The position numbers and the translations under genes are program-made. The notes under the pieces were generated by a model that was not told where the DNA came from, did not search any database, and saw only the letters and a list, made by a program, of their open reading frames with translations. Shown piece by piece: positions 4,631-58,552 of a stretch of 64,000 bases of DNA (positions within the stretch are counted from its first letter, which is position 1; the number at the start of each line of letters is the position of its first letter). Source of the DNA: Callorhinchus milii (Eukaryota); contig NW_024704804.1 in assembly GCF_018977255.1 (NCBI RefSeq), forward strand, positions 186,001 to 250,000. The letters are read 5' to 3'.

Positions 4631-4719
4631 CTCTCCCTCTCTCTCACACTCACTCTCACTTTCTATCTTTCTCTCTGTCAATCAGCCGCTGTAGGCTTTG
4701 CTACAAACTGGAGACAAAT

Positions 4720-5567: not shown

Positions 5568-5604
5568 AGCACGCCCTCTGGTGGCAGTAAAGTGGTGCTG
5601 CAGG
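5568..5604 (-). promoter_or_regulatory. Candidate CTCF site (core plus upstream module)
   Basis: Minus strand ctgcagcacc-actttac-tgccaccagagggcgtgc matches the CCACCAGRGGGCG core with a TGCAG-type upstream module. Confidence 0.6.
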
Positions 5605-5869
5605 GTTTTGGCGGGGCATGAAAGGATTTCACTCTGTAACAATATAATAATAAAAATAATATAATTCTTGCATTTGAGCCAGTGCCTTATCACATCTTCC
5701 AGACGTCTCAAAGCGCTTTACAAAATATGCTGTAAAGTGATTTGACTGTCCATATGTGGATGAAACGCAGCAGCCAATTGCGCACAGCAGCGACCCACAA
5801 ACAGTCATGGATTGAGTGATCAAATTACCATTTTTTTTTCTTGATGGATCATTATTTGGCATTGATACA

Positions 5870-6280
5870 CCCAACCACTCCCATGTTTCTCCTGTATACA
5901 CAAAGACTCTCTGTGGGTCTCTTCTGTATAAACAGCCATTTCCAGTGCCTCCGGTTGTATACACACAACCTCTCCCAGCGTTCCTCCTTTACACACAATG
6001 AAATGGAGAAACTTCACACCTTCACACCTACCTCTCCCGCTGTCTCTCTTGTATACACACAGCCTCTCCCAGTGTTTCTCCTGTACACGTAGCCTCTTCC
6101 CGTGTCTTCCACTGTATAAACCAACCTCTTCCACTGACTCCCCTGTATATACACAGCCACTGCCAGTGTCCTGCCTGTATACACACAGCTCTCCCAATCT
6201 TTCTCCTGTACAAACAGCCTCTTCCAATATCTCCCACACACACACAGCCTCTCCCGGTGTCTCTCCTGTACACACACAGT
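5870..6280. repeat. ~32-bp minisatellite (tgtatacacacagcctctcccagtgtctctcc)
   Basis: Repeated degenerate units; a longer inverted counterpart lies at ~61830-62390. Confidence 0.8.
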
Positions 6281-6854
6281 ATAAAAATATAAATAACTCA
6301 GTATATCAAAACAATTGTATTCGTCTGACAGACTCACACGCTTCAAGGAAAGTAAAATAATTCAGCAAAGTCTTTTGCAAACTTAATCAGCCGTAAGTTG
6401 TGATTAACAAATTGAAACAGCCTAAGACAGGTATTACCTGATTTCTATCACAAGTGTTGGAGAAAATGTCTTATTTCCAAGGGAAGAAATGACGGATTTG
6501 GAATCAAACAAACTTATTTTGCCAATAATTTAATTTCTATTTGCACAATAAAAATCTTCATCATTAGAATATGAATCACTATCAAAAAACTGCATCAAAA
6601 AAAATTATATAAAACTGCAGACAGTATTTTGGATTTAAAGCGAGTCCGTGCTCTTCTTAAAGGGGAGACGTGGTGTTTTGGGCGATTAAAAAGTCTTTTT
6701 GTAATAACAATGATAATAATAATTGTCTTTATCCAAGCGCCTTATCACGACTTTGAGACGTCTCAATGCGCTTCACAGGATAGTGTCGTGACTGAGTTTT
6801 TACAGGATTCAATGCAAAGTGTTTTTGTAAAGTGTCTTGTAACTCAGGGTGTTA

Positions 6855-7114
6855 GACACACAACCACACACAGTCACACACATATACACACAGAGAGAGA
6901 GACACGCACACACACACACAAAGCACAAACATACACACACAGACAGCGATACACACGAGCATCAACGCAGACAGATACAGAGACAGACAGATGACAGACA
7001 CAGACACAGGCACACAGACACAGAAACGCAGACACAAACACACACAGAAACAAACAGACACACACAGACACACAGGACACACGCACAACACAGGCACAAT
7101 AATACACACTCTTA

Positions 7115-7145
<31 letters not shown>

Positions 7146-7203
7146 CACAGGCACAGAAACTCACACACAGACACGCACGCACACACACACACACACACAC
7201 ACA
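6855..7203. repeat. CA/CAGA-rich microsatellite
   Basis: (CA)n and cagaca runs; inverted copy at 60863-61240. Confidence 0.9.
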
Positions 7204-8339
7204 GCCCGGGACAGGCAGTGATCACAGTGTCCACCCGAGTGAACATCACGCAGGAATGGCTCCATTCCACATGAGTTGCAGAGCTCCAGATCAGCTCCAG
7301 GGAGACTCTGGTCACCTCCCCTCAAGGAGGAGAAGGGAATTGACTAAACAAGCGCTTCGAGGCGTCTGCAAGACGTGAGCAGCGCAATATCAAATGCCGA
7401 ATTATTATAAATAGTCTAAATACTCAGAATAAAGTGAACAGTTACACAGTGCAACACCAGCATCTGGTGGCAGTACTGTGGAACTGCAGGATTTTATTTG
7501 TAATTTGAACCCGAACTGAATCACAGCAAATGATTACTTCCCTCAAATCCACGAGGAGAGAAGGAGAAGCAGTGAATTGCTGTCTGTGTCTGACCGCTCT
7601 TTAGCACTAGACGCTGACAATCAGACCCAGGGACTGAGCAACACAATTAATGTCGTGGGATTCATTGCGAAAGAGTTTATTGACATAAACACATGAAAAG
7701 GAATGAAAATGGATTCGTCAATTATAAACCAAAACTGAGGAGAAGCTCCGAGTCCTGATCCTCCGTGAAGGAGGAGAAATAAATGCAGTTTATTGTTTGT
7801 TGTTGAGAAACTGCGAAGTAACTCGGAATCTCTGTCTGTCCGTCGGCCTTGGACATCCTCCCGACATGAAAGGCCTTTACACAAGGACATGTTGTTCCTC
7901 CCTCTCTCTCTAACACTCACTCTCACAATATTACACTCTGTCTCTGTCTCTCACATTCTTTATCTCACTCTCTCTCTGAGTGTCTCATATACACACACAT
8001 TCTCTCTCTCACTCTCTCCATTGTAGACAGGCAGAGTGCATATGGGAGACAGACAGTGAAGGAATGAGTGACTCTGTGTGTTCATGGACCTCACGTTTCA
8101 GGAGGTTGTCATCCCACAGCCATAGAGGATTCAGAGAGAGTATCTGTGCTTGTGGTAGGAAGAGGGGACGGTCAGTGCAGAATTCACATGAATGTGTGGC
8201 ATTAACACATTTGTCCCGTCAGGGTGATGACAACTCTGTGGAGAGGAGCCAATGGCAAATGGATGCTCTGTGGGACACAGAGAAGAGTTTCAATGAAACT
8301 GTCATTGGGGACAATCCCTTCAAAGGTATAGATAGATGT

Positions 8340-8800
8340 TTCTCCCGTGGTCACAGAAGATGCGGATGCAGCCAACGCAACAGTATCGGATACGCGGGCA
8401 GAGAAATTGTGTAGCTCAAGAATAAAACGAGAGAAATTTCGACAAATCAATCGGTGCTCAGGCTAGATAAGACACCCGGATCGCACGGGGTGAATGCTAG
8501 TTTACTAAAGGAAATAAGTGGTGCAATCCGGGACAAAATACATCTCCACAAAGAAAATTTTGGTTTAATTTAGAAGAGCCAATACAGTCCAACAAACCAG
8601 ATAATTTTTTTAATGAATTAACGAAGAGGGTGGAATAAGATTCTACAGTTGGTGTTGTTATGCATTTTAAAAAGGCGTATTAGATAGTATCATACAAGAC
8701 ACTTGTAAGCAAAATAGAAGCCCACGATTTTAAAGGGACAGTGGCAGCATGGAAACAGAATTGTCGCGGATACTGAAAGCAGACTGTAGAGGTGAACGGT
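8340..8800 (+). mobile_element. CR1-like LINE ORF2 fragment (decayed)
   Basis: Homologous to 59110-59750(-), which encodes KPGPDGMNPSLLKEI and NYRPVKLTS. Confidence 0.65.
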
Positions 8801-9842
8801 TATTATAGTTCCTAATATGAGGACTTGCAGATATGCAAACAATGCTGCAGGTGCAATCTATCGAATGATATGCACACATGTGCCATTGCCAGTGGACTTG
8901 TGCACACTCTGGTTCTACCTATAAAACCCAGTACACTGGCAGCTTTCACATAGAAATTTCGACACCCATTGATGGAAAGGTTTCACTTGGTGGCACTTTC
9001 AGTTTGGAGGGAAGTCTGCAGCGGTGTTCTCCATTTGTCTGTATTGGGACCACTGCTGTTTTTGATCGATATATATAATAAATATTCAATATATTAACAA
9101 AACGGGCAGCGCCTTCCTAGGTGAAGTATAGGAACGGAACATGGAGGCTGCTAGTAATTAAGAAATTAAATCCTGCAGCATTGTTTGCATATCTGCAAGT
9201 TCTCACATTAGGAACGATAATAATGTGTTGGAATGGAAACAGAAGAGCTGTACCAGAATGATACCAGGGATGTGGGCTGTTCAGTAAATGTTTCATTTTA
9301 GTTACCTGATGTTTGGTGGACATCTGATTGAAGACCGTGCAAATCTCTTTGCAGTCCAGAGCAGCCGAAATACACTGAGAGATTGAGCTCGGCTGCAGGA
9401 AAAACTTCACAGCTGGTCAACAAGGGCAGCATCTGGCAAAGAATTCAGCAACTGTCCTTCTAGCCAAACCCGAGAAGATTTGACGTTGCATCACTGGGCA
9501 CACAATAGGAGGCAAAGGATCGACAGAATGTATACCCACAGCGTAACGTGTGCTGATGACCTCAGATATTAGATATTGATGTGAGCAACAAAAATGATTC
9601 TATGAATGGAGGGCCTGGTCTCTGAGGTGTGCCTAAGTATATTGACCATTTTGACGCCGCAAAAGAGATTTTTGGGAGGCGACATGATTGCTTTCTTTAG
9701 TAATCTAAATGGGTGAAATTCAGAATAAATTTACACAAACACTATTTCAGTTCGCGGAGTGTTAATCTGTGGAAAATTCACGCTTGGGAGTCAGAGGCTT
9801 GAAGCAACGAGTGTTGTTTTTTTGAAACACGAATCACATATC

Positions 9843-10340
9843 TTATGAAATAACAATATGTAATTCAGCGCACAGAGAGATTGCGCAATCGGTGCATCCA
9901 CTCTGTGATAGTTTGGTACAATATTGGTTTCACTCTCACTGGGTAAGATCAAACCTGAGTGATGGATATTGGGCCAGAACAAGATCAACAGTTTCTTTAT
10001 CTCCAACTCACTAGCCTGATAACGAACCTCGTCTTATAACATTGAGCTCGGCCGCCATTCATTCCCTGTCATCACAACCCACAACCACAGGCATTTAATG
10101 CAACGTGCAATTGGCCTGAATCAGACACAGACACACCCTGACCACAACACGGGTTAGATTTCATTCCAGCTTTCTGTTGTTGCACACGTCACCTTGAATG
10201 TGGCTCAGCCCCCATGAGATCCTGCTTACCTCCCCCAAGGAATCCAGTCAGCAGTTGGTGCCAGCAGCGAAACATTGGCGTTACACAATCATTGGTGCAA
10301 ATAGCCTATTCCAGGTGGAGACAGTCCTGGGTTATAAAGA
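9843..10340 (+). promoter_or_regulatory. GPCR copy 1 proximal promoter: TATA box with C/EBP-like and RUNX-like sites
   Basis: TATAAA at 10333-10338 (~55 nt before the ATG), TTACACAAT at 10281-10289, palindromic GATTGCGCAATC at 9879-9890, AACCACA at 10083-10089. Confidence 0.6.
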
Positions 10341-10391
10341 CTGGCAGCTTTGAATGTCCAGGACTGAAAGTCTATCCGCTGCTGATAGACA

Positions 10392-10491
10392 ATGTTGAGG
10401 GCTGTAGCCTACTTTCCGTGGCAGTATTTGCCAACAATTTATCGGATACTGATAGTTTATTATCCTATTCTTGCAGCTATTGGTATTACAG
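10392..10491 (+). CDS. GPR139/GPR142-like GPCR copy 1, exon 1
   Basis: acaATG with an in-frame stop just upstream. Reads MLRAVAYFPWQYLPTIYRILIVYYPILAAIGIT (N-terminus and first half of TM1). Phase-1 donor G|GTAATA. Confidence 0.88.
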
Positions 10492-10969
10492 GTAATAAGT
10501 TACAGCAGCATTTTACTTGTTCTACAAGCTTTTTTATGGCACACTCATCTACGTTTCCTTGCCCAGCTGTGCCTCCTATTCCGCTGATGTCTTTTTTGAT
10601 GTCTCCAGAAGGATATGATTCTGTGGTTGGCTCAACCCTCTCTGCTCTCGCTGTGAGACTGATAGTGTGACCCTTATGTTTGATGGCCTGCTCGCTACCT
10701 CGCGTGTAACTTAGGTGACCATAGACACAATCCAAGCGAAATATCTTCCGGTCTGATCTGATGATCGCTCAAAATGGTGTGATGTGAAGACATTGAGCGT
10801 CCAGTGTTTCAGGACATATTGGCTGTAAGAATGTCTGACGGTGGGGATGTGTGAGCATATGAGCGAGTCAGCGGCTGGACGGGCCAGTTCTGTCAGTAGG
10901 TTGAGAGCCAGAGAGATTCCAGGGTAGGAACGGTTTGCAGATGTTTTGACAATCTTGATACCCTTGTAT

Positions 10970-11220
10970 CAAGGGCGAAACCTTGGGCAAGTTTCCTTAC
11001 TCCACACAGAGCCTAATAATAATCCCTCCAAAACCAAAAACAATAATAAATTGGTCATTTTCAATCCACGACTGTTTGTGGGACATTGCTGTGCGCCATC
11101 GGCCGCCGCGTTCGCCCACAAATATACAGTCAATTCACTTTACAGTGTGTTCTGTGAAGCGCTTTGGGACGTCCTCCCGACGTGAAAAGCGCTATATTAA
11201 ATGCAAGGATTATTATTATT
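10970..11220 (+). mobile_element. 5'-truncated SINE in the copy 1 intron
   Basis: agggcgaaaccttgggcaag...atgcaaggattattattatt. Absent from the introns of copies 2-4. Confidence 0.88.
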
Positions 11221-12214: not shown

Positions 12215-13113
12215 GGAACTTGTTGGCCATTGTGGTCCTGTCCCGAGGAAAGTGTGGGCTCTCAAAATGTATCACCCTCTACATGGTGGCCATGGCAGTG
12301 GCCGATCTCCTGTTCGCCATCACCGAAGTGGTTTTGAACCACATACATTCTCTGTATTTCAATCACACATTTCTGGACATCACTCCCGTGTGTTCACTCA
12401 GATTGGTGCTGATGTCGGCGGTGACACACATGTCAGTCTGGTTCACAGTGGCTTTCACCTTTGATCGCCTGGTCGCCATCTGTTGGGTGAAACTGAAAAC
12501 GAGTTATTGCACCGAGAGAACAGCAGCCGTGGTTGTAGGAGTGATTTCTTCTCTGAGCTGTTTCATCAGCATTCCCTGGTACCTTATGTATGAGCCCAGA
12601 GAGATACTGAACAAAGTTCCTTGGTTTTGCAAGTTCAAAGTGGTTTACTACACCTCTCCCACATCGATTGTATTTCACTGGTTTGACACTATAATAACTC
12701 CGTTTGTTCCATTCTTTCTGATTCTGCTGATGAATGTGGTGACAGTCAGACACATTTTAGCTTCGAATAGAATCCGCAGAAACCTCCTGCAACAGAAAAA
12801 TGAAAATGGCATTGATGCAGAGATTGAGAATCGAAGAAAATCAATCATCTTACTCTTCGCAATATCAGGCAGCTTCATCCTGTTGTGGCTAATGTATGTT
12901 TTAAATTTTATATTTTTGCGAACCTTAGTCAATTACTTCTACCAAAGCTACAGAGACCCAGTGTTTGTTGTCCAAGAAGTGACTGACATGCTTAAGGTTT
13001 TGAGTTGCTGCACAAACACCGTCATTTATGCTTCAACACAATCTAAGTTCAGAGAGGATGTCAAATATCTTGTGATCTTTCCGTTTAAACACATATTTAA
13101 CCTATTTAAATAA
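12215..13113 (+). CDS. GPR139/GPR142-like GPCR copy 1, exon 2 (spliced product 332 aa)
   Basis: ctcacAG acceptor at 12213-12214; 100+899 nt = 333 codons including stop. Class A motifs GNLL, MAVADLL, TM3 Cys, FTFDRLVAIC, ECL2 Cys, PFVPF, NRRKS..LFAIS..F..LW and SCCTNTVIY. Confidence 0.93.
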
Positions 13114-18817: not shown

Positions 18818-18847
18818 NNNNNNNNNNNNNNNNNNNNNNNNNNNNNN
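18818..18847. other. Assembly gap (30 N)
   Basis: Run of N. Confidence 1.
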
Positions 18848-25188: not shown

Positions 25189-26087
25189 TTACTTAAATAG
25201 TTTAAATATGTGTTTAAACGGATAGATCACTAGATATTTCACATCCTCTCTGAACTTAGATTGTGTTGAAGCGTAAATGACGGTGTTTGTGCAGCAACTC
25301 AAAACTTTAAGAATGTCTGTCACTTGTTCGACAACATACACTGGGTCTCTGTAACTTAGATAGTAATAACTGTTTAACGTTCGCATTAATATGAAATGTA
25401 AAACTTCCATCAGCCACAAAAGGATGAAGCTGCCTGATATGGCGAACAGTAAGATGATGGATCTTCTTCGGTTCTCCATTTCTGCATCATTGCCACTATT
25501 ACTTTTCTGGTGGAGGAGATTTCTGCGGATTCTGTTGGCCGCTAAAATGTGACTGACTGTCGACACGTTCATCAGCAAAATCAGAATGAATGGAAGAAAC
25601 GGAGTTATTATAGTGTCAAACCAGTGAAATACAATCCATGTGGGAGAGGTGTAGAAAACCGCTTTGGGCACGCAATCCCAAGGCACTTTGTTCAGTATCT
25701 CTCTGGGCTCATGCATAAAGTACCAGGGAATGCTGATGAAACAACTCAGAGAAGAAATCACTCCTACAACCACGGCTGCTGTTCTCTCGGTGCAATAACT
25801 TGTTTTCAGTTTCACCCAACAGATGGCGACCAGGCGATCAAAGGTGAAAGCCACTGTCAACCAGACTGACATGTGTGTCACCGCCGACATCAGCACCAAT
25901 CTGAGTGAACACACGGGAGTGATTTCCAGAAATGTGTGATTGAAATAAAGAGCATGTATCTGGTTCAAAACCACATCGTTGATGGCGAACAGGAGATCGG
26001 CCACTGCCATGGCCACCATGTAGCGGGTGATACATTTTGAGAGCCCACACTTTCCTCGGGACAGGACCACAATGGCCAACAGATTCG
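25189..26087 (-). CDS. GPR139/GPR142-like GPCR copy 2, exon 2
   Basis: Acceptor ttctcacAG, 899 nt, intact 7TM motifs. Confidence 0.93.
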
Positions 26088-27405
26088 CTGTGAGAAAGTG
26101 GAACAGCAAACAAACTTATTTACCTGTGCGCTGCGTAAGTTGATGGTATTTAGCTCAAAGTTCATTCACGCAGCAGTTTCCCATCAATACTCATGGATTG
26201 ATGGGCCCATTTTAAAAAAATTCAAAGCATTAATAAGGAATATTTAAATGATCAAACACAGGAATCAGGCTTGACAGGCGACTTCGGTAACCACTGAGCT
26301 GCAGATATTATTTAACCAATGAACTACAGACGAAAATAACCAGTAACATGTAAGAAGTTCTGCCGAATTCCCTGTCTGTCGCCTGTTCTGTTGGACATGA
26401 AAGATCTCCTGTGACACTACCAGAAAATAGAATGAACTATGTCCACATTTCCTGGCTATGTGTACACCAAATAATGTGTGTATTCTCAAATATGTATCGC
26501 GCTTCTCTGGTTACAATCATGTTAACATCTGACAGGACATTGTCAACTATATGCATTGAATATCATCTTAAAAATGTGGAACTTATTCAGTATCAACATG
26601 TGTTCCTGCAGATCAGAACATAGGTCCGAATATTCACTTCCACTAACGGAAGATGGCGTTAAAAATTCAACTGTGTAAATGTGAAAAGAATTCGGCTCAC
26701 GCACAGCATAATTCGCAGTAACGTCAAAAGAAATAGAGGGCTCAATCGAGCTATTTATAGTCGGACATGAAAATATCCAGATTCTCTATTTTCCACACTG
26801 GTCACCCCAACCCCCTCCATTCACAACATCCAACTCATTGAAAACAATTCCAAACAAGTCCACTCTCACACAATCTCCGCACTTCCATCACTCCAGTCCT
26901 CGCCAGGATTCCCTGCCTCCTTTCCAGAAAACACATTGAAATAAAGATACTCAACATATTTGCAAACCATTCCTTGCCCTGGCATAGCTCTGTCTCTCAA
27001 CCTACTGACAGCCCTGGCTCGCTCATCCGATCAATCCTTCCTCACCGCCAGACATTCTTACAGCCAATGTGTCCTGAAACACTGGAGGCCCAATGTCTCC
27101 AACTCACACCCTTTTGAGCGAACGTCAGATCAGACCGAAAGATATTCTTTTAGGACTGTACCTACGGTCACCATTGTAACACACGTAGTAACGAGCAGAC
27201 CCTCAAAGAAGAAAAGACACACTATCAGTCTCACAGCGAGAGTGGAGAAGGTTCAGCAAACGACAATATCTTATCTTTATAGAGACATCAAAAAAGACAT
27301 CAGCGGAACAGAAGTCACAGCTGGAGAAGTAGAAGTAGATGTGTGTGCCATACGCAAACTTCTGGTACATCGAGATACAAGTAAAAATTGTATCTAACTA
27401 ATTAC

Positions 27406-27505
27406 CTGCAATACCAATAGCTGCAAGAATAGGATAATAAACTATCATTATCCGAAAAAGTGTTGGCAGATACTGCCACGGAATGAAGGCTATAGCCTTC
27501 AACAT
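27406..27505 (-). CDS. GPCR copy 2, exon 1
   Basis: ATG at 27505, MLKAIAFIPWQYLPTLFRIMIVYYPILAAIGIA, donor G|GTAATT. TATAAA at 27564-27559. Confidence 0.88.
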
Positions 27506-30500
27506 TGTGTATCACCAGCGGATAGGCTATCAGTGCTGGACTCTCAAAGCTGCCAGTCTTTATATCCCAGAACTGTCTCCAATGGGAATAAGATATTTGC
27601 ACAAATCATTGCGAAATACAAATGTTCCTCTTCTGCCACGAACTGCTGACTGGATTCCTTGGGGGAGGTTGGCATGATCTCATGGGGCCTGAGCCAGCGT
27701 TAAGGTGACGTGTTGAACAACAGAAAGCTGGAATGAAATCTAACACGTGTAGTGGTCAGGGTGAGCCTGTTTCTGAGTCAGACCAGTTACATGTTGAGTA
27801 AATGACTGTGGTTGTGGGTTCTGATCAGAGAGCATGAATGCTGGCTGAGGTCAATGTTATAAGACGGGTTTCGTTACTAGGCCTGTGGGTTGGATATAAA
27901 GAAAGCGTTGGTCTTGTCCTGGCACAATATCCACCAAAAAGAATTGTTCTTACACAGTGAGAGTGAAACCAATATTGTCCTAAACTAAGTCACTGGGTGA
28001 ATCTGTTGTGCAATCTCACTCTGTGCCAAATCACGTAATGTTATTTCATAAAAGAAAAATATGTGATCCATGTTTCAAAGCATCAACACTCCCTCCTTCA
28101 AGCTTCTGACTCCCTATGGTGCATTATCTCCAGATATACTATTCGCTAACGTTGTCTAACTACAATGGAAATTTGTTTTCTTGGGATCAAAAACAGCAGT
28201 GGTCCCAATACACATCACTGCGGGACAGCATTGCAGAATTCCCTCGACAGAGAAAAACAACCTTTCACCACCACTCTCTGCTTTCGTTATCCGAGACAAT
28301 TCTCTTTCCATGCTGCCACCGTCGCTTTAAAATCGTGGGCTTCTGTTCTGTTACAAGTGTCTTATATAGCACTTTACTGCAAGCCTTTTGTTATTCCATG
28401 TCAAGTGCACGATCTGTATAAGCTTCCTCCACCCTCTTCGTTACTTCATAGATAAGCTATCCGCTTTGTTAGAACGTGATGGCTCTTCTTTATTACTGCT
28501 ATCTATTGATTCTTGTTCCACACTCCCAGATAACTGAGCAATAAAGCTGAATGAATTTTGATTGACTGTTTGTTTGATTGATGCATATTCTTATAACCCC
28601 ACTTTCAATAACTGATACTCTATTACGAGTGGAGGCCACTGTATAAGTATAATTTGATGTTGATTTTAAAACATCTGACAAAGATCCATATATATATATT
28701 ACAAATTGAAATAAGACAGTTTCTGTAATTGAATGCTCATTCTCTCCCTGCAGACTCACAATCCTATTAATTAATACCGGAGAGTATAAGGCACAGATTT
28801 GCTAGAAGAAATGCTTTGGGTCCCCGGAGTAGTTGCTCAGGTGCATCTTAGATTCTGTCCGAGTTTAACAAGTTCAAAGTGAATCATTTGTCACAGAAAA
28901 ATATATTCCATAGAATTTCAAAATTATTTCAACACAGTATTTTGTCTGCTTTTGGGATATTGCTGTGCAACTGCACAGACGTGTTTCCTTACAGATGCAC
29001 AACGACATCATGTGAAGCATTCGGATATTCTTTTGACGTGAAAAACAAAGTGCCTTTGACCAGTAGATACGCTTCACGAGAAAAAAAGGTGCATCCAGTT
29101 CGTCCAACTCTCTGGCGGTGAAGTGCACATATGCCCCGAACAATCTATGTACTATATTTCATTTTGTTATATTCCGAATAAAATCTCTCTAGTGTGTGCT
29201 TGAAAGAATCAACACTTGCTGCTGCAACCATCTCCCATGGGAGTCTGTTCCACGTGTTCACTAATCGCTCACTGAAATAATATTTTCGGAGAATCGTACT
29301 GAATTTACCCCCTTCATTTGCAGGCCGTGTCCTCGGGTTTTGCTATTCTGGACAAGTTGAGACAGCCTGTAATGATCTGTGTTATCTGGCCATGTTAGAA
29401 TCTTAAGGACAGCAATCGTTTTGTTCTTCTTCCAGTGTAAACATGATTACTTAGTCCCTTCTCCCATTCCAGTACCGCTGTTCCCTAAATCGTTCAAGTT
29501 GCCCTCTTCTGCATCTAACAGCCGAGTTCATCAGCACATACGAAGCAATCGATATATATTCTTGCTATATTTTCTCTCCGATCATGTAATCAGTTTCACA
29601 TTTTCTGTGTATGTTATGTGACGCGACAAGCACAGGCATCTGGATGCTTGCCAGTCAGTTCTCTCAGTGAGAGGCGTTGAAGTAGTTTCTGGCTAATCTG
29701 CAGCCGAGCTCAATCACACAACCTGTTATTTTCTGCTCTGGACTAATCAGACAAATGACCTCCAAATATTAGGCAAAACCTAATCAGATATTTATGAACT
29801 GGCCCTCTTCACTGACACCATTCTTGTACATCTCCTTTGCATCCATTCCAATACCTTATACTCTTTTCTAATACGAGAAATCTGAACACAGTGCGGCAGT
29901 TGCAATGTAACGAATGATATGCACAAATATGCCATTGGAAGCTGAAATTTGCATCTATGATTCTACCTATACAACCAAGAATACTCTCAGCTATCCACAG
30001 ATATTTCGACATCCAACAATCGGAAGGATATGCTGCTTGCCACTTCCAGTTACAGAGATAAAGCCACCACTAATGTGCCTTTGCTCCTCTGCTACTCGCA
30101 AGATACTGCCAGTCAGTATGTATAACCTTCGCTCATCTTTTCTGCCCAAATGTATAATCTTCCATTTTGCTTGATTCAGCTTCAGCTTCCACCGATCTGC
30201 CCATTCTGCTGATATATTGAATTCCTTCTGCTTGTACACGTTGATATAACATTTAGTGTTCTCCTTAATATTGTGGGATAGAGATCTTCGAGCTCCGCCT
30301 GTTATCTCAAAAGAAACTGAGCCATAATATAATGACTAAATACAGCAGAGTGATTTTATGTTGAACACAGTTTCTTCCATTGCTTGCAGCTGTTAAAAGT
30401 ATGATAAAGCACTATTTTCATGAAATCGAATCACATAATTTATGATCTGAAGCCTGTGCTGTATTTGTGCAACAAATTATATAATTGAAAGCAATTAAAA

Positions 30501-31500: not shown

Positions 31501-33371
31501 TAACGTGTTTGACTTTACTTGACACCTGTCTGGGATACGATCAAAAGCACATAAGAATGTAGGAATTTCCTGAGCCAAAGAAGACTGAAATCCATCTAGT
31601 TTGCCTTCCAGCATTCCTGCAGTCGCTTGGCATGACTTGTCCCAAACTTTCTAATGTATTTTTGTGCGTGTGTCTCTCTCTGTCTGCCCGAATGTAACTG
31701 GGACAACAAGTGGCATGGAGGGCGCTATTCAAATTGAAGTTGTTCTTGTTGTTGTTTGCGACTGTGTTCGTGTCTGTGCGCGTTTGAGTGCTCTGTGAGT
31801 GTGTATATGTGTGTCTCTGTTTGCGTATGTGCCTGTGTGTTTCATTCCCTCTTTACATATCTGTGTGTGTTTGTGAGTGTTTATCTGCCTGTGTTTGCAA
31901 TTCTGTGTTTCTGTGCTGTTGTGCGTGTGAGTCGGTGTTTGTGTGTGTGTGTTTGTGGGTAAGTCTGTGTATATATATTTGTTTGACAATATTCTGCACA
32001 ATGACATGAATCAAAAATAGAAGTGAGTTTGTCCTGGTGTCCTGGCTGACAACACCATTAATAAAAATTGAACGCACACTTCACTGCAAATTGACAGCCA
32101 CAATCACTTGCAGTGTCTCGATACTTTACAGCAGCGGTGTCCAATTGGCTGGACGCAGGTGTCCCAGCGGTGAGTTTTTTTCACTCGATACCATTTCCAA
32201 CCATATAACTTCCGCTCCCTCCCTGTTGAACTTCCTCGTGTGGCAGCAGAAGGAGCCGACGGTCGGGAGACCTCAGTGTGGAGAGTGGAATAATACCGTC
32301 CATTGCTGCAGTGGGTCAGGAAGGTGAGCATTTCTCTAATCAATCACATACTTAGTCAGCGCCAACTCCTCCATCAGCAGATAGTGATTGCCGCGCGGCT
32401 GATAACAGCAATACCAATCTCCAGCATTGCTGGGGTCAACATACTTACACACACGAATTGAATTACCAAACTTTAGAGTAACAAGAGAATACAATATGAC
32501 ACAATTGCTTTGTTCAAATTAGGTGAATTATTTATTAGCTGATAAGGTAACTCATCAAATAACGAAAGTCGGAACGGAAACTGTATATACTTCAGCTACT
32601 AGTACATGTGTCTTACAGAATAAAATTCCAGTGTTTGTTTGCCACATAATATGTCACAACTCTCGAACCCTCAGTCAATGATTAATAAATACCAACCTCA
32701 AAAGAACACTTGATATTCTTACCTTTAAAATTAACCAAAGGCCAGTACGCGATTGAATTCTTCTATATTTGAAACCACCTCGAACCTCTCCTCACCCAAT
32801 TATCCCACATAAACGACACATCTATGGCTCTTTCCCCGCTGATCCACACCTCCCGTCCTCTCTCTCTCTCTGTTACATTTCTAAACTCCTTAACATATGA
32901 CTTTGGCCCTTAGTTCAACTTGTCTAATCAACACCTATTTGAATAATCTGCTCATTTAATTTTTATTCACGTTTGAGCACGTGATGAGTTTACGTTTAAA
33001 ATAATTTTCTGGTTAAGCAGCTACACGTAATTGCTCCTTGTTAACTTTGGCCGCCTCAATGGCTCCACCCGACACCCTTTCCAGCGACCATCAGATCTCA
33101 GCTGAAGATATTTCTTTTGGACTGTGTCTTCGGCCACCATTTATACAAGACTGGTTCGCGAGCAGACCCATAAAGAAGAAGGGACACACAGTCAGACACA
33201 CAGCGAGAGCAGAGAGGGTTCAGCCAACGATAAAAACTTATCTTTATAGAGACGTCAAAAAGCCATCAGCGGAATAGGAGTCACAGCTGGAGGAGGAGAA
33301 GCAGATATGGGTGCCATGCGCAAACTTGTGGCACATCGGGATAGAAGTAAAATGTGGCTGTAACTCATAAC

Positions 33372-33471
33372 CTGTAATACCAATAGCTGCAAGAATAGGA
33401 TAATAAATTATCATTATCCGAAAAAGTGTTGGCAGGTACTGCCACGGAAAGAAGGCTATAGGCCTCAACAT
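33372..33471 (-). pseudogene. Orphan GPCR exon 1 (own exon 2 deleted); possible alternative first exon
   Basis: Intact ATG, MLRPIAFFPWQYLPTLFRIMIIYYPILAAIGIT and a G|GTTATG donor. Intron homology stops at ~33080 and abuts sequence matching the 3' flank of the other copies (~33050 and below). Confidence 0.82.
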
Positions 33472-34099
33472 TGTCCATCACCAGCGGATAGGCTGTCAGT
33501 GCTGGACACTCAAAGCTGTCAGTCTTTATTAACCAGAACTGTCTCCACTGGGAATAGGCTATTTGCACAAATGATTGCGTAACGCCAATGTTTAGCTTCT
33601 GGCACTAACTGCTGACTGGATTCCTTGGGCTAGGTAAGCAGGATCTCAGGGGGGCTGAGTTGGCTTTAAGATGACGTGTTCAACAGCAGAAATCTGGAAT
33701 GAAATCTGACCCGTATATTGGTCAGGCTGTGTCTGTGCTGAGGCAGGCCAGTTACATGTTGCATTTAATGACTATGGTTGTGGGTTGTGATCTGCGGTCA
33801 AGAGTGGCCGCTGAGGTCAATGGTCGCTGTCGAGGTAACTTATCGCACTTGCGGTTTGTCGGTGAAGAGAGGGTTGGTCTTGTCTTGCCCCCATATCAAC
33901 CATAAATATTAGTTCTTACCCAGTGAGAGTGAAAACCGTATTGCCCAGCTTTTATTGCCCAGCCCGTATTGACAGCTTTTACATAAACATTTCGCACCCA
34001 TTGATGGGAAGGATATTCAAGTTGACAATTTCAGTTGCTTAGTTACTGTCAGTCTCCAAGTCCCTTCCCCAATCTGCACCGAGCAAGGCGCTGCACGTA

Positions 34100-38445: not shown

Positions 38446-38499
38446 CTTTTATTCAGGCAGCAGGTCATCGGCATCGATGAACACGTTGTTAACGAAATA

Positions 38500-38858
38500 A
38501 TCTAACGATTATTAGAAATGGAAATGTCAACGCGATTTTCAGCTGCTCTCTGAATTTAGTCTGAGTAACGGCATTATATACACGTGTTTGTACAGGAATT
38601 CAACAGCTGCAGCATTGCGCCAGTTTCATACAAAATGTGCAAAAGATCATTGGAGTCTATGTGGTGATCTTTATTCAAAATCGTCCAATATAAGATAACC
38701 GATACTTGTGTCATCCACAATAATGTAAAACTGGCGGAAACAGCAAATAGTAAAACGATGGATTTCCTTCTGTTCTTTATCTCCGGATCTCTGTCACTCG
38801 CTCCTCTATTCCAGTCCCCAGTGCTGTATCCCCGCAATCTACTGCGGGCTCGACTGGC
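38500..38858 (-). pseudogene. Truncated, frameshifted GPCR of a divergent GPR139-like subfamily (ICL3 to C-terminus)
   Basis: ASRARSRLRG...DPEIKNRRKSIVLLFAVSASFTLLW...MLQLLNSCTNTCI, then a +1 frameshift at ~38575, then AVTQTKFREQLKIALTFPF. Confidence 0.85.
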
Positions 38859-40966: not shown

Positions 40967-41865
40967 TTACTTAAATAGTTTAAATATATGTTTAAACGGA
41001 TAGTTCACGAGATATTTGACATCCTCTCTGAACTTAGATTGTGTTAAAGCGTAAATGACGGTGTTTGTGCAGCAACTCAAAACCTTAAGCATGTCTGTCA
41101 CTTGTTGGACAACATACACTGGGTCTCTGTAACTTTGGTAGAAATAATTGTCTAACGTTCGTAATAATATGAAATCTAAAACATACATCAGCCATAACAC
41201 GATGAAGCTGCCTGATATGGCGAAGAGTAAGATGATGGATTTTCTTCGATTCTCCATCTCTGCATCGTTGCCACTATTACTTTTCTGGTGCAGGAGGTTT
41301 CTGCGGATTCTGTTGGCAGCTAAAATGTGTCTGACTGTCACCACGTTCATCAGCAAAATCAGAAAGAATGGAACAAACGGGGTTATTATTGTGTCAAACC
41401 AATGATACACAATCCATGTGGGAGAATTGAAGTAAGCCACTTTGTACTGGCAATACCAAGGCACATTGTTCAGTATCTCACTGGGCTCAAACATAAAGTA
41501 CCAGGGAATGCTAATGAAACAGCTCAGAGAAGATATCACTCCTACGACTACAGCTGCTGTCCTCTCGGTGCAATAACTTGCTTTCAGTTTCACACAACAG
41601 ATGGCGACCCAGCGATCAAAGGTGAAAGCCACTGTGAACCAGACTGACATGTGTGTCACCGCCGACTTCAACACCAATCTGAGTGAACACACGGGAGTGA
41701 TGTCCATAAAAGTGTGATTGAAATAAAGAGAATGTATCTTGTTCAAAACCACATCGTTGATGGCGAACAGGATATCGGCCACTGCCATGGCCACCATGTA
41801 GATGGTGATACATTTTGAGAGCCCACACTTTCCCCGGGACAGGACCACAATGGCCAACAGATTCG
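40967..41865 (-). CDS. GPR139/GPR142-like GPCR copy 3, exon 2
   Basis: 899 nt and intact, with a DRW variant and Lys in mid-TM3. Confidence 0.93.
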
Positions 41866-43185
41866 CTGTGAGAAAATGGAACAGCAAACAAACATATTTA
41901 CCTGTGCGCTGCGTAAGTTGATGATATTTTGCTCAAAGTTCATTCACGCAGCATTTTCCCATCAATACTCATGGATTGATGGGTACATTAAAAAAACAAT
42001 TCAAGGCATTAATGAGGAATATTTAAATGAGCAAACACAGGTTTCCAGCTTGGCAGTCGACTCGGGTAAGCACTGAGCTGCAGATATTATTTAACCAATG
42101 AAGTACAGACGAAAATAACTGGTAATATGTAAGAAGTTCTACCTAATTCCACGTTAGTCGCCTTTTCTGTGGGGCATGAAAGGTCCCCTGTGACACTACC
42201 ATAAAATCTAATGAACTATCTCCATATTTCCTGGCCATGTATACACCAAATATACTTTGTATCCTCAAACATTTACTGCGCTTCTCTGGTTACAATCATG
42301 TTACTTTCTGATAGGATAATGTCAAGTATATGCATTGTGTATAATCTGAAAGATGTGGACTTCATTTAATGTCAATGTGTGGAGCTGCAGATGAGAACAT
42401 AAAGCAGAAAATTCGCTTGCATTAATTGAAGATAATGCTAAAAATTCCACAATATTAATATGAAAAGAGTTCGACTCACGCACAGCACAATTCGCAATAA
42501 CGTCAAAATAAATGAAGGGCACAACCGTGCTATTTATGGTCAGACAACGACAATTTCGAGATTCTCAAATGTTTTTCTCACTTGTCACCCCAACACTCTC
42601 CATGTACAACATCCAGCTCATTCATAACAATTCCAACCATGTCCACACTCACAAAATCTCCGCACACCCTTCACTCCAGTCCTCGACACGATTCCCTGCC
42701 TCGTTTCCAGAAAACATATTGATATCAAGATACTCAAAACATATGCAAACCATTCCCTGCCCTGGCATGCTTCTGTCCCTCAACCTACTGACAGAATTGG
42801 CTCGCTCAACTGTGCAATCCTTCCTCAACGCCAGATATTCTTACAGCCCATGTGTCCTGAAACACTGGAGGCTCAATGTCTCCAACTCACACTTTGAGCG
42901 ACCGTCAGATCAGACCGAAAGATATTCTTTTAGGACTGTACCTACGGTCACCATTGTATCACGCGTAGTAACGAGCAGACGCTCACAGAAGTACGGACAC
43001 ACTATCAGTCTCACAGCGAGAGTGGAGAGGGTTCAGCAAACGCCAAAATTTTATCATCATAGAGACATGAAAAAAGATATCAGCGGAACAGAAGTCACAG
43101 CTGGAGAAGTAGAAGTAGATGTGTGTGCCATGCGCAAACTTATGGTACATCGGGATACAAGTAAAATTTGTATCTAACTAATTAC

Positions 43186-43285
43186 CTGCAATACCAATAG
43201 CTGCAAGAATAGGATAATAAACAATCATTATCCGAAAAAGTGTTGGCAAATACTGCCACGGAAAAAAGGCTATAGCCTTCAACAT
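43186..43285 (-). CDS. GPCR copy 3, exon 1
   Basis: ATG at 43285, MLKAIAFFPWQYLPTLFRIMIVYYPILAAIGIA, donor G|GTAATT. TATAAA at 43344-43339. Confidence 0.88.
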
Positions 43286-46200
43286 TGCGTATCACCAGCG
43301 GATAGGCTGTCAGTGCTGGACACTCAAAGCTGCCAGTCTTTATATCCCAGAACTGTCTCCACTGGGAATAAGATATTTGCACAAATGATTGCGAAATACC
43401 AATGTTCCTCTTCTGCTACGAACTGCTGACTGGATTCCTTGGGGGAGGTTGGCATGATCTCATGGGGCCTGAGCCAGCGTTAAGGTGACGTGTTGAACAA
43501 CAGAAAGCTGGAATGAAATCTAACACGTGTAATGGTCAGGGTGAGCCTGTGTCTGAGCCAAGCCAGTTGTATGTTGAGTAAATGACTGTGGTTGTGGGTT
43601 CTGATCAGAGAGCATGAATGGTGGCTGAGGTCAATGTTATAAGACGGGTTTCGTTACTAGGCCCGTGGGTTGGATATAAAGAAAGGGTTGGTCTTGTCCT
43701 GGCACAATATCCACCAAAAAGAATTGTTCTTACACAGTGAGAGTGAAACCAATATTGTCCTAAACTATGACAGTGGGTGAATCTATTGTGCAATCTCACT
43801 CTGTTCCAAATCACGTAATGTTATTTCATAAGAGAAAACTATGTGATCCGTGTTTCAAAGAATCAACACTCCCTGCTTCAAGCTTCTGACTCCCTGTGGT
43901 GCATTATCTCCAGGTATACTATTCGTCAACGTTGTCTTACTACAATGGAAATTTGATCTATAGGGATCCAAAACAGCATTGGTCCCAATACACATCACGA
44001 GGGGACACCATTGCAGAATTCCCTCTTCAGAGAAAAGCAACCTTTCACTACCACGCTCTGCTTTCGTTATCCGAGACAATTCTCTTTCCATGCTGCCACC
44101 GTCCATTTAAAATCGTGGTCTTCTGTTCTGTTAAACGTGTCTTTATAGCACTTTTCTAGAAGCCTTTTGAAATTCCATGTAAACTGCACGATCTGTATAA
44201 GCTTCCTCCGCCCTCTTCGTTACTTCATAAATAATATATCCGTGTTGTCTGTTCTTTATTAAACCATATATTTCTTAGTGAATATGTATTTTGTCTCTGG
44301 AAGATTGTCATGTCTGGAAGTTGCCCAACAACTGAAGAACTTACGACTGGCCTCCAGTAAACGGGTTAATCCATCTGCCAGTTTTTGTACTGGGGACTGT
44401 CAGTTGCATCACTTCCGTCCGCTGGCAGCACGCCGGTGTTCAAAGAAAATTTAGATATTTTGCCCAGAGACTCCGTTAATTCCACCCTTACTGCTTCAGT
44501 AAACTATGATGCATTCCGTCGGGTCCGGCTGGCACATCTACCCGGAGCACCGATTAAATTTTTCAGTAACTGCTATCTATTGATTCTTGATCAAAACTCT
44601 CACAGAGCTCAGCAATAAAGCTGAGTGAATTTTGATTTGCTGTTTGTTTGATTGATGCATATTCTTTTAACCCCACTTGTAATAACTGATACACTATCAC
44701 GAATGGAGGCCACTGTACAAGTTTAATTTGCTGTTGATTTTAAAACATCTGACAAAGATCCATATATATATATTAAAAATTGAAATAAGACAGCTTCTGA
44801 AATTGACTGCTCATTCTCTCCCTGCAGACTCACAATCCATTTAATTAGTACCGGAGTGCATAAGGCACAGATTTGCTAGAAGAAATGCTTTGGGTCACTT
44901 GTGTAGTTGCTCAGGTGCATCTTAGATTTTGTTCGAGTTTAAGAAGATCAAAGTGAATCATTTGTCACAGATAAATATATTCCATAGAATTTCAAAATGA
45001 TTTCAACACAGTATCTTGTCTGCTTTTGGGATATTGCTGTGCAACTGCACATACGTGTTTTCTTACAGATGCACAACGACATCATGTGAAGCATTCAGAT
45101 ATTCTTTTGACGTGAAAAAACAAAGTGACTTTGACCAGTAGATACGCTTCGCGAAAAAAAAAGTTGCATCCAGTTCTTCCAACTCTTTGGCGGTCAAGTG
45201 CACATATGCCCCGAACAATCTATGTACTATATTTCATTTTGTTATATTCCGAATAAAATCTCTCTCATGTGTGTTTAAAAGAATCAACACTTGCTGCTTC
45301 AACCATCTCCCATGGGAATCTGTTCCACGTGTTCACTAATCGCTCACTGAAATAATATTTTCGTAGAATCGTACTGAATTTACCCCCTTCATTTGCAGAC
45401 GTGACCTCGGGTTTTGCTATTCTGGATAAGTTGAGACAGCCTGTAATGATCTGTGTTATCTGACCACGTTAGAATCATAAGGACAGCAATCCGTTTGACT
45501 GTCAATGTTCTTCTTCCAGTGTGAACCTGATTACTTAGTCCCTTCTCCCATTCCAGTACCGCTGTTCCGTAATTCGTTCAAGTTGCCCTCTCCTGCATTT
45601 TACAGCCGAGTTCATCAGCACATCCGCTGCAATCGATATATATTCTTGCTATCTTTTCTCTCCTATCATGTACCCAGTTTCGCATAATCTGTATATGATA
45701 TTTGATGCGACAAGCACAGGCATCTGGATGCTTGCCAGTCAGTTCTCCCATTGAGCGGCTTTGAAGCTGTTACTGGCTAATCTGCTGCCGAGCTCAATCA
45801 CACAACCTGTTTTTTTCTGCTCTGGACTGATCAGACAGATGACCACAAAATATTAGGCAACACCCAATCAGATATTTATGAACTGGCCCTCTTCACTGAC
45901 ACAATTCTTGATCATCTTCTTTGCATCCATTCCAATACCTTGTAATCTTTCCTGATACGATGAAATCTGAACACAGTGCTGCAGTTGCAATGTAACCAAC
46001 GATATGTACAAATATGCCATTGTTAGCTGAATTTTGTATTCTATAATTCTACCTCTAGAACCAAAAATACTGTCAGCTTTGCACAGATATTTCCACATCC
46101 AACAATCGGAAGGATATACTGCTTGCCACTTCCAGTTACAGATATAAAGCCAACTCTAATGTGCCTTTGCTCCTCTTCTACTTGCAAGATACTGCCGATC

Positions 46201-55065: not shown

Positions 55066-55964
55066 TTACTTATTTAGATTAAATATGTGGTTAAACGGAT
55101 AGATGACAAGATATTTGACACTCTCTCTGAACTTAGATTGTGTTAAAGCATAAATGACTGTATTTGTGCAGCAACTCAAAACCATCAGCATGTCTGTCAC
55201 TTGTTGGACAATAAACACTGGGTCATTGTAACTGATGTAGAAATAATTGTCCAACGTTCGTAATAATATGAACTCTAAAACATACATCAGCCATAACACG
55301 ATGAAGCTGCCGGATATGGCGAAGAGTAAGATAATGGATTTCCTTCGATTCCCCATCTCTGCATCACTGAGACTATTGCTTCTCTGGTGCAGGAGTTTTC
55401 TGCGGATTCTGTTGGCCGCTAAAATGTGACTGACTGTCACCACGTTCATCAGCAAAATCAGAAAGAATGGAACAAACGGGGATATTATAGTGTCAAACCA
55501 GTGGAACACAATCCATGTGGGAGAGGTGTAGAAAACCGCTTTGGCCTTGCAATACCAAGGCACTTGGTTCAGTATCTCTCTGGGCTCAAACATAAAGTAC
55601 CAGGGAATGCTGATGAAACAACTCAGAGCAGAAATCACTCCGACAACTACGGCTGCTGTTCTCTCGGTGCAATAACGTGTTTTCAGTTTCACCCAACAGA
55701 TGGCGACCAGGCGATCAAAGGTGAAAGCCACTGTGAACCAGACTGACATGTGTGTCACCGCCGACATCAGCACCAATCTGAGTGAACACACGGGAGTGAT
55801 GTCCAGAAATGTGTGATTGAAATAAAGAGAATGTATCTGGTTCAAAACCACATCGTTGATGGCGAACAGGAGATCGGCCACTGCCATGGCCACCATGTAG
55901 ACGGTGATACATTTTGAGAGCCCACACTTTCCCCGGGACAGGACCACAATGGCCAACAGATTCG
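55066..55964 (-). CDS. GPR139/GPR142-like GPCR copy 4, exon 2
   Basis: 899 nt, intact 7TM motifs. Confidence 0.93.
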
Positions 55965-57275
55965 CTGTGAGAAAGTGGAACAGCAAACAAACATATTTAC
56001 CTGTGCGCTGCGTAAGTTGATGGTATTTAGCTCAAAGTTCATTCACGCAGCAGTTTCCCATCAATACTCATGGATTGATGGGCCCATTTAAAAAAAATTC
56101 AAAGCATTAATAAGGAATATTGAAATGATCAAACACAGGAATCGCGCTTGACAGGCGACTTCGGTAACCACTGAGCTGCAGATATTATTTAACCAATGAA
56201 CTACAGACGAAAATAACCAGTAACATGTAAGAAGTTCTGCCGAATTCCCTCTCTGTCGCCTGTTCTGTTGGACATGAAAGATCTCCTGTGACACTACCAG
56301 AAAATAGAAAGAACTACGTCCACATTTCCTGACCATGTATACACCGAACAAAGTGTGTATCCTCAAATATTTATTGCGCTTCTCTGGTTACAATCATGTT
56401 AATTTCTGATATGATAATGTCAAGTATATGCATTGCGTATAATCTGAAAGATGTGCACTTCATTTAATGTCAATGTGTGGAGCTGCAGGTGAGAACATAA
56501 AGCCGAAAATTCGCTTCCACTAATTGAAGATAACGCTAAAAATTCCACTATATTAATATGAAAAAGTTCGACTCACGCACAGCACAATTCGCAATAACGT
56601 CAAAATAAATCAAGGGCACAACCGTGCTATTTATGGTCAGACAACGAAAATTTCGAGATGCTCAAATATTTTTCTCACTTGTCACCCCAGCCCCCTCCAT
56701 GCACAGCATCCAGCTCATTCAATACAAGTCCAAAGGTGTCCACTCTCACACAATCTCCGCACACCCTTCACTCCAGTCATCGCCAGGAATCCCTGCATCC
56801 TTTCCAGAAAACACATTGATATAAAGATATTCAAAATATTTGCAAACCATTCCTTGCACTGACATACCTCTGTCTCTCAACCTAATGACAGAACTGGCTC
56901 ACTCATCCGATCAATCCTTCCTCACCGCCAGGCATTCTTACAGCCAATGTGTCGTGAAACACTGAAGTCTCAACGTCTCCAACTCATACCCTTTTGAGCG
57001 ACCGTCAGATCAGACCGAAAGATATTCTTTTAGGACTGTACCTCCTGTCACCATTGTAACACGCGTAGACACTCAACGAAGAAGGGACCCACTATCAGTC
57101 TCACAGCGAGTGTGGAGAGGGTTCAGCAAACGACAATATCTTATCTTTATAGAGACATCAAAAAAGACATCAGCTTAACAGAAGTCACAGCTGGAGAAGT
57201 AGAAATAGATATGTGTGCCATGCGCAAACTTGTGGTACATCGTGATACAAGTAAAATTTGTATCTAACTAATTAC

Positions 57276-57375
57276 CTGCAATACCAATAGCTGCAAGAAT
57301 AGGATAATAAACTATCATTATCCGAAATAGTGTTGGCAGATACTGCCACGGAATGAAGGCTACAGCCCTCAACAT
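57276..57375 (-). CDS. GPCR copy 4, exon 1
   Basis: ATG at 57375, MLRAVAFIPWQYLPTLFRIMIVYYPILAAIGIA, donor G|GTAATT. TATAAA at 57434-57429. Confidence 0.88.
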
Positions 57376-58552
57376 TGTGTATCACCAGCGGATACGCTGT
57401 CAGTGCTGGACACTCAAAGCTGTCAGTCTTTATATCCCAGAACTGTCTCCACTGGGAATAGGCTATTTGCACAAATGATTGTGCAACACCAATGTTTCTC
57501 TTCTGGCACGAACTGCTGACCGGATTCCTTGGGGGAGGTAAGCAGGATCTCTTGGGAGTTGAGACTAATTTAAGGTGTCGTGCTCAACAAAAGAAAGCAG
57601 GATTGAAATCTAACCTGTGCAGTGTTCAAAGTGTGTCTTTGTCTGATTCAGGCCATCTACATCTTGTATTAAATGACTGTGTTTGCGGGTTGTGATCAGA
57701 GGGCATAAATGGCGGCTGAGGTCAATGATATAAGAAAAGTTTCGTTATCAGGCTCGTGGGTTGGGGATAGAGAAAGTGCTGATCTTGTCCTGGCCCAATA
57801 TTCACCATAAATATTTGTTTTTACTAAGTGAGAGTGAAACCAATATTGTCCCAAACTATGACAGAGTAGATGCACCTATTACGCAATCGCTCTGTGTGTT
57901 AAATCACATAACGTTATTTCATAAGAGAAAATATGAGATTCGTGTTTCAAAAAACCAACATTCGCTGCTTCAAGCTCTGACTCTGTAACTTGCATTTTCC
58001 ACAGATTCACTATTCGCTAACTGAAATAATAATTGTGTAAATTTATTCTGAATTTCACCCATTTAGATTACTAAGGACAGCAACTATGTCGCCTCCCAAA
58101 CATCTCTTTTGTGGTGTGAACATGGCCAAAATACTTAGCCACACCTCAGGTTCTAGGCCCTCCATACATTGAATCATTTTTGTTCCTCAACTCCACATCT
58201 AATAGCTGAGGTCATCAGCACACGTTGCGCTGTGGGTACACATTCTGTCCATCCTCTGCCTCCTATTGTGTGCCCAGCGATGCAACAGCAAATCTCCTCG
58301 GGTTTGGCAAGAAGGACATTTGCTAAATTCTTTGCCAGATGCTGCCCTTATTGACCTGCTTTGAAGTTTTTACTCCAGCCGAGCTCAATCTCTCAGTGTA
58401 TTTTGGCTGCTCTGGACTGCTCAGAGATTTGTACGGTCTTCAGTCAGATGGCCACCAAACATCAGATAACTGAAATGAACCATTTACTGAACAGGCCCAC
58501 ATCCCTGGTGTCATTCTGGTACATCTCCTCTGTTTCCATTCCAACACATTAT

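Follow-up and report, generated by a model that had tools for sequence, protein, structure and literature searches.

Classic myeloid promoters, such as those of CSF1R, ELANE, and MPO, are built on C/EBP, RUNX1, and PU.1, and C/EBP combined with a TATA box is equally compatible with genes of granulocytes, acute-phase liver, fat, and epithelia. The FPR and MRGPR/MAS1 families arose by tandem expansion of GPCR genes in particular lineages and have variable ligand pockets. Olfactory-receptor promoters use O/E and homeodomain sites, and we know of no characterisation of shark olfactory promoters. Cartilaginous fishes have been described as relatively GPCR-poor, and MAS1 relatives are reported to be absent from them (PMC8455134); a functional gap is therefore possible in this group. 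Their olfactory repertoire is also small, and the term 'GPR' is absent from the main text describing it (PMC11979771). The closest characterised relatives of the receptors considered here are GPR139, described as neural, and GPR142, described as pancreatic and gut (PMC7318219), which have a common origin with the MIP, FMRFamide, and related receptors of protostomes (PMC8514136).

The locus described here carries five copies of what is probably a real TATA and C/EBP promoter, to judge from the features and tests given below. A promoter of this kind is ordinary; its significance lies in the receptors that it drives and in being the first clue to their cell type.

Gene copies and receptor family

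The window, that is, the whole 64-kb stretch of DNA that was analysed, contains five promoter copies (c1 to c5), four of them belonging to intact two-exon class A GPCR genes and one (c3) without exon 2. Copy c1 lies on the + strand with its ATG at 10392, and c2 to c5 lie on the − strand with ATGs at 27505, 33471, 43285, and 57375, respectively. In each intact gene, a coding exon 1 of 100 bases and an exon 2 of 899 bases flank a GT-AG intron of 1311–1723 bases, and the product is 332 aa with zero internal stops; Pfam 7tm_1 was matched by the exon 2 frames of all four. In c1, coding exon 1 (10392..10491, +) comprises 33 codons plus one base and is followed by a GT donor at 10492, and coding exon 2 (12215..13113, +) completes the 332-aa 7tm_1 gene. 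The same exon 1–exon 2 join is also present in the database paralogues P0004 and P0006. The other intact genes with their promoters, all on the − strand, span 25189..28014 (c2; exon 1 27406–27505, exon 2 25189–26087), 40967..43794 (c4; exon 1 43186–43285, exon 2 40967–41865), and 55066..57887 (c5; exon 1 57276–57375, exon 2 55066–55964). The promoters of c2 and c4 are 93–98% identical.

In the truncated c3 (33055..33946, −), approximately 470 promoter bases are left, together with an open exon 1 (33372–33471), a GT donor, and the start of the intron. A deletion of approximately 2.2 kb removed its exon 2, and its distal C/EBP-type site is also missing. Exon 1 of c3 is phase-compatible, and its donor (33371) is on the same strand as the acceptor of c2 exon 2 (26087), approximately 7.3 kb upstream of it; c3 could thus be a candidate alternative promoter and first exon for c2. 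Both the splice donor and the TATA of c3 are weakened. Between c4 and c3 lies a frameshifted 3′ remnant of a distant paralogue, running from TM5 to the C-terminus (38492..38858, −; 37–39% identical), showing that another subfamily was formerly present in the cluster. The upstream flanks of c1 and c5 match over approximately 6.5 kb at 83–88% identity in inverted orientation (4190–10960 vs 56820–64000), indicating a large inverted duplication within the cluster. A young SINE-like element is found in the intron of c1 only (10972–11220) and is 94–96% identical to copies at 1117–1440, 24407–24666, and 53707–54029. An assembly gap of 30 N lies between c1 and c2 (18818–18847).

When a 42-sequence profile was searched against solved structures, six hits were obtained at 1e-10, the best of which was human GPR139 (E 6e-18; 68 bits vs 54 bits for the next). 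With a single member as the query, GPR139 (E 9e-12) was second of 54 hits, below the prolactin-releasing peptide receptor. By these matches, GPR139 appears to be the nearest characterised receptor, and the genes fall among the broad GPR139/GPR142-related class A GPCRs. The Trp/Phe pocket of GPR139 has been assigned to E3.32, F3.33, H5.43, W6.48, R6.51, and N7.38 (PMC7318219). At these positions the window copies have M/K, S, D, W, Y/E, and D, and only W6.48 is kept (1/6); by this comparison the receptors are therefore distant GPR139 relatives, not orthologues, and probably bind ligands other than those of GPR139.

A protein search gave 1898 matches among 4504 candidates. Database paralogues of the window genes carry the label 'probable GPR139'. 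The best 120 of the 1898 were all from cartilaginous fishes: horn shark (39), sevengill shark (35), sawshark (12), Rhinoraja (9), elephant shark (8), and others (17). The closest database relatives were Callorhinchus milii proteins, up to 92% identical, which places the window in a holocephalan. In a tree of 41 rows, none of them GPR139 or GPR142, the window genes grouped with elephant shark proteins (100/100) and were enclosed in a 32-row chondrichthyan clade (99/97), followed by two salamander proteins on a long branch (96/87) and then by a coelacanth and teleost group. The coelacanth protein has relatives in a wide range of fishes, amphibians, and reptiles, among them shark genes that are only 27–32% identical to the window genes. 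A further GPR139-labelled group (P0227, P0282, P0283, and others) occurs in sharks, teleosts, amphibians, and reptiles, separate from the expanded clade; it gave 145 hits at E 1e-20, and the named rows of the best 120 include neither mammals nor birds. No loci of relatives were found in viral, prokaryote, or metagenome contigs. Likewise, no description of the chondrichthyan GPR139-labelled family, its promoter, or its expression was found in the literature searched, which included few subscription journals, and passages of PMC7677710 and PMC12294341 contained nothing relevant.

Among the four intact copies, pairwise dN was 0.065–0.078 and dS was 0.14–0.21, giving a dN/dS of about 0.3–0.5. Variable residues were more frequent in the outer halves of the receptors (39/130) than in the inner halves (31/169; P = 0.02). 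Positive selection was considered and rejected, as regional dN/dS ranged from 0.21 to 0.80 and was nowhere above 1. All four proteins lack the usual proline of TM6, reading W-L-M at 6.48–6.50, and have NTxxY in place of NPxxY. Across the family rows, proline is not among the six commonest residues at 6.50, and T occupies 7.50 in 98 of 102. The changes in TM6 and TM7 suggest an unusual activation switch.

TATA box, C/EBP-type sites, and their conservation

In c1, a TATA box with the sequence TATAAAG lies 59 bases above the ATG (10333..10339, +). The same word at the same spacing was found in four of the five copies (c2 27558–27564, c4 43338–43344, c5 57428–57434), and the corresponding position of c3 reads AATAAAG (33524–33530). 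Based on spacing, the predicted start region is 10357..10366 (+), 24–33 bases below the TATA. A TATA-type core promoter upstream of an intact exon 1 and GT donor is supported by this arrangement.

The first-pass annotation had listed distal C/EBP-type sites and a proximal pair, and a direct sequence check found every quoted word in its position. The distal words are ATTGCGCAAT (9880), GTTGTGCAAT (28005), ATTGTGCAAT (43785), and ATTACGCAAT (57878), and the proximal words are TTACACAAT (10281), TTTGCACAA (27596) with ATTGCGAAA (27608), ATTGCGTAA (33574), and ATTGTGCAA (57478). The distal site of c1 (9880..9889, +; −512 from the ATG) has retained matches at 28005–28014 in c2, 43785–43794 in c4, and 57878–57887 in c5; the observation that it varies in sequence and still fits C/EBP thus holds in all four intact copies, c3 being without the site. 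Of the proximal pair, the upper site (c1 10280..10289, +; −112 from the ATG) occurs as four variants among the five copies and matches in all of them (c2 27608, c3 33574, c4 43388, c5 57478). The lower site (10293..10303, +) is C/EBP-like in c2 to c5 and is broken in c1 (TGGTGCAA), where a single change abolished it. An extra paralogue in sequencing run X1 (two contigs, at 43770) has GG at the centre of its distal site, which fits the loose pattern and not the ten-base pattern described below. A dispersed repeat fragment (43802–43892 in c4, with a matching part in c1, c2, and c5) forms the upstream edge of the shared promoter. A transposon origin of the distal site was rejected, the repeat stopping approximately 8–25 bases above it.

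For the statistical analysis, we took RTTDCRYAAY as the ten-base C/EBP pattern, which was composed after the sites had been seen. It has 13 matches in the 64 kb, nine of which coincide with distal or upper proximal sites of the promoters. Among 469 promoter positions, 2 match the pattern in every one of the four intact copies, compared with 0 of 1706 aligned intron and 3′-flank control positions. Permuted patterns averaged 0.00, and the resulting P = 0.002, which is the floor of 400 permutations, would become about 0.1 when corrected for the 39 patterns tried. Of these 39, 8 had a site that all four intact copies retain, and two such sites were found only for the three versions of the C/EBP pattern (controls, 0 in 1706–1768 positions). 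The four matches outside the promoter sites yield a Poisson estimate of about 5e-4 before multiple-pattern correction. Against dinucleotide shuffles, C/EBP matches exceeded chance, with P = 0.001–0.03 per copy for an 8-base pattern and P = 0.005–0.16 per copy for the looser TTNNGYAA.

The two kept sites carry 3 and 4–5 substitutions, all of them at tolerated positions. Because the central CpG of C/EBP sites decays to tolerated variants, CpG mutation was weighted in the simulation of this retention; CpG columns were variable in 47 of 81 cases vs 197 of 762 for other columns, which corresponds to a weight near 3. For the ten-base pattern, the joint simulated P was 0.0004, 0.005, and 0.016 at CpG weights of 1, 3, and 6, respectively. 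Retention was weaker with 8-base patterns (joint P 0.004–0.24; 0.08–0.24 at CpG weights of 5–10). These probabilities are subject to the caveat that the copies are not independent (47 runs vs 91 expected). On this evidence, the sites at −512 and −112 are quite likely functional C/EBP-type sites, apparently kept by selection.

Conservation along the promoter was uneven. Positions −170 to 0 were more conserved (130 of 170 columns invariant in five copies) than the distal promoter (P = 5e-5) and the intron (P = 3e-4), whereas the distal promoter (166 of 288 invariant) equalled the intron portion next to exon 1 (168 of 280; P = 0.61, five copies). Invariant motif columns (43/55) did not exceed the other promoter columns (357/491) in the four intact copies (P = 0.43), and in the proximal part the counts were 29/40 for motif columns vs 62/80. 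The first-pass annotation had named motif conservation no higher than in flanking duplicated DNA as a refuting outcome, and this outcome was partly observed; only −170 to 0, as a region, is more highly conserved.

The equal divergence of distal promoter and intron would fit motifs that are mere passengers, that is, ancestral sequence that was recently duplicated, homogenised by gene conversion, and altered by CpG decay, and that is uninformative on tissue. The copies are indeed sequence-exchange mosaics: their 160 informative sites fall into 47 runs vs 91 expected, and the phylogenetic grouping of the copies changes from promoter to intron to 3′ flank, with nearly all informative sites from −700 to −100 grouping c2 with c4. 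Passenger motifs are also compatible with the low synonymous differences of exon 1 and codons 34–105 (pS 0.055–0.09, vs 0.13–0.28 further 3′) and with the private changes of c3, which from distal promoter to intron number 30/150, 14/138, 7/170, 3/100, 8/153, and 23/127; the truncated c3 has the same conservation peak as the intact copies. The conservation of −170 to 0 may therefore be partly due to gene conversion. Three results speak against passengers. Two ten-base matches would have to arise in one 500-base ancestor, vs four others in approximately 61 kb (the Poisson estimate above); the CpG-weighted retention P is still 0.005–0.016; and the similarity of c1 to the other copies is lopsided, at 81–91% for −170 to −60 and only 75–80% in the intron just past exon 1. 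This drop from promoter to intron favours real constraint on the promoter side, and we consider a passenger origin of the motifs rather improbable. Copies c1 and c5 have an identical stretch of 146 bases.

Accompanying motifs and cell type of expression

The first-pass annotation had read the promoters as a conserved combination of C/EBP, RUNX, Ikaros-like, and TATA elements suggestive of myeloid or leukocyte expression, a reading that was overstated: the full set (C/EBP, RUNX, AGAGGAAC, Ikaros-like, and TATA) is present only in c2 and c4, and neither RUNX nor PU.1 nor Ikaros is kept in all four intact copies. Since c2 and c4 are near-identical, the composite code amounts to one observation. 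The RUNX word TGTGGTT was correctly reported for c1 (10083..10089, −), c2 (27807), and c4 (43587), and it is not conserved, differing at the aligned place in c3 and c5 (3/5 copies; the window background for RUNX-type words is 0.33 per 600 bp). The ETS-like AGAGGAAC, an incomplete PU.1 word, was likewise located in c2 and c4 and is limited to this one promoter pair (2/5), and c5 has neither this word nor the RUNX word. The Ikaros-like TGGGAATA occurs in the minus-strand copies c2 to c5, as described, and is absent from c1, the very copy on which the description was centred (4/5). RUNX, PU.1, and Ikaros patterns gave 0 sites kept in all four intact copies, including 0 for the PU.1 core GAGGAAGT; all four do retain a bare AGGAAT core at −154, within chance (P = 0.33). 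The RUNX-, ETS-, and Ikaros-like words, variable between copies, would be modulators at most. None of the patterns for MYB, GATA, AP-1, STAT, NF-kB, ISRE, GFI1, the exact octamer, or PAR-bZIP was kept in all four copies, and these candidates were rejected.

The strongest conserved promoter block had been overlooked in the earlier description. It lies at 10234..10256 (+), with 22 of 23 positions invariant in five copies, and combines a GGAA core with a large-MAF half-site-like word, both labels being post hoc. A 13-base block at 9928..9940 (+) is identical in five copies and bears a resemblance, which may be due to chance, to an IRF/PRDM1 site. IRF-half-like and MAF-half-like words, also post hoc patterns, are kept in all four intact copies. 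GTGCAAATA at 10295–10303 can be read as forkhead or as a one-mismatch octamer, again post hoc. These labels lean toward haematopoietic factors, yet a single stretch allows several readings.

Myeloid expression is the leading single reading of the promoter, though a minority one. C/EBP alone is not specific for myeloid cells, because cebpb and cebpd mark non-myeloid cells of the bamboo shark: in the single-cell marker table of this species they are listed for epithelial and goblet cells and for kidney tubule, whereas c-Maf is a T-cell marker (PMC11372145). In the tongue sole, the neutrophil or macrophage clusters have C/EBPalpha, C/EBPbeta, PU.1, and MafB among their markers (PMC11372145 supplement).

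The shark cebpb and cebpd markers would fit equally a promoter of the same TATA and C/EBP type that is active in epithelial or endodermal cells, such as endocrine cells of gut or islet, chemosensory cells of gill or skin, kidney tubule, or hepatocytes. The receptors would then be diversified nutrient or chemical sensors like GPR142, whose pancreatic and gut expression (PMC7318219) is in line with such a role, and Srw/FMRFamide-receptor-like clusters are among the nearest Atlas neighbours. Moreover, GTGCAAATA at −97 is invariant, is retained even in c1, which has lost the C/EBP reading that overlaps it, and fits the forkhead pattern. This forkhead match is within chance, however (one site kept in four, P = 0.13), and, of the HNF1, HNF4, and FOXA sites that accompany C/EBP in hepatocyte promoters, HNF1 and HNF4 gave 0; GRHL, TEAD, and p63 patterns also gave 0 sites kept in all four copies, and the GPR139 Trp/Phe pocket residues are kept only 1/6. 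We regard epithelial or endodermal expression as a possibility that comes not far behind the myeloid reading.

Clustered, recently duplicated GPCRs with variable outer halves also call to mind an olfactory or other neuronal repertoire that would compensate for the small odorant-receptor set of cartilaginous fishes, and GPR139 itself is neural (PMC7318219). No O/E (EBF) or homeodomain pattern was kept in all four copies, however, and the promoter has a clear TATA, which makes a neuronal repertoire very unlikely.

The entry 'receptor 139' is not in the bamboo shark marker table (PMC11372145), a blank of little weight, since PU.1 and the C5a receptor are missing for the shark as well and the table is thus insensitive. 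There were 0 matches for GPR139 in one file of the supplement of the elephant shark genome paper and 0 matches in the searched part of the supplements for whale shark, thymic mimetic cells, and nurse shark spleen; the searches extended to part of the supplements of PMC3964593, PMC12286861, and PMC10529500. Contigs of X1 and X2 (runs presumed, like X3, to be RNA), aligned to c4 at 80%, were unspliced across promoter and intron, which is evidence on neither expression nor start. The 15 joints listed at c4 in runs X1 to X4 included no exon 1–exon 2 joint, and run X3 left the mid-intron and exon 1 of c4 uncovered; neither is evidence on expression. Summed X4 depth was highest on exon 2, exon 1, and the proximal promoter, a depth that does not equate to copy number.

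We propose that the locus carries a compact promoter for RNA polymerase II, serving orphan receptors related to GPR139 in a tandem cluster that evolves by birth and death. The TATA would set the start approximately 30 bases above the ATG, judging by spacing, and the constrained part of the promoter would extend roughly from −170 to 0. According to the sequence tests, a bZIP factor of the C/EBP family probably acts at −112 and −512, perhaps assisted by a factor on the invariant block at −158 to −136. Unequal exchange and gene conversion would have spread one promoter design while the outer receptor halves diverged. The result would be one C/EBP-rich cell type with a set of receptors for different ligands, a cell type that is most plausibly myeloid, with confidence below even.

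Comparison with known promoters and receptor families

Compared with the classic myeloid promoters, the window promoter is similarly compact, with C/EBP-type sites within approximately 100 bases of the predicted start and a RUNX word approximately 280 bases upstream in three copies. Unlike in those promoters, neither RUNX nor PU.1 words are conserved from copy to copy, and AGAGGAAC differs from the GAGGAAGT core.

Of the close comparators GPR139 and GPR142, human GPR139 (PDB 7vug, 9m42) provides the best solved-structure match to the receptors, and the two-exon structure is shared with GPR139 (PMC7318219). The window family is distant, whereas human and zebrafish GPR139 are 70% identical (PMC7318219), and it forms a multi-copy cluster in contrast to the single GPR139 gene. 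The expansion is apparently undescribed and is more interesting than the promoter itself. It also contrasts with the reported GPCR paucity of cartilaginous fishes, as the family has at least 39 distinct members in the horn shark and at least 35 in the sevengill shark. If the receptors are expressed in epithelial or sensory cells, they would represent an unrecognised chemosensory repertoire; if they are expressed in leukocytes, the oldest lineage of jawed vertebrates would possess a system of innate sensing that has gone unrecognised.

Like FPR and MRGPR, the window cluster is a tandem, lineage-specific GPCR expansion. Neither family was among the 6 profile hits or the 54 single-sequence hits; there is no sequence kinship, and the comparison can therefore only be functional. 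As such, the analogy depends entirely on the putative leukocyte expression. A tentative possibility, which we put forward with reserve, is a leukocyte sensor repertoire of dozens or more genes per species that arose from the GPR139-related peptide-receptor lineage, with a shared promoter of TATA and C/EBP, possibly with MAF, and with diversified ligand-facing halves. Such a repertoire might be an independently evolved counterpart of the FPR and MRGPR clusters, hidden under the label 'probable GPR139'.
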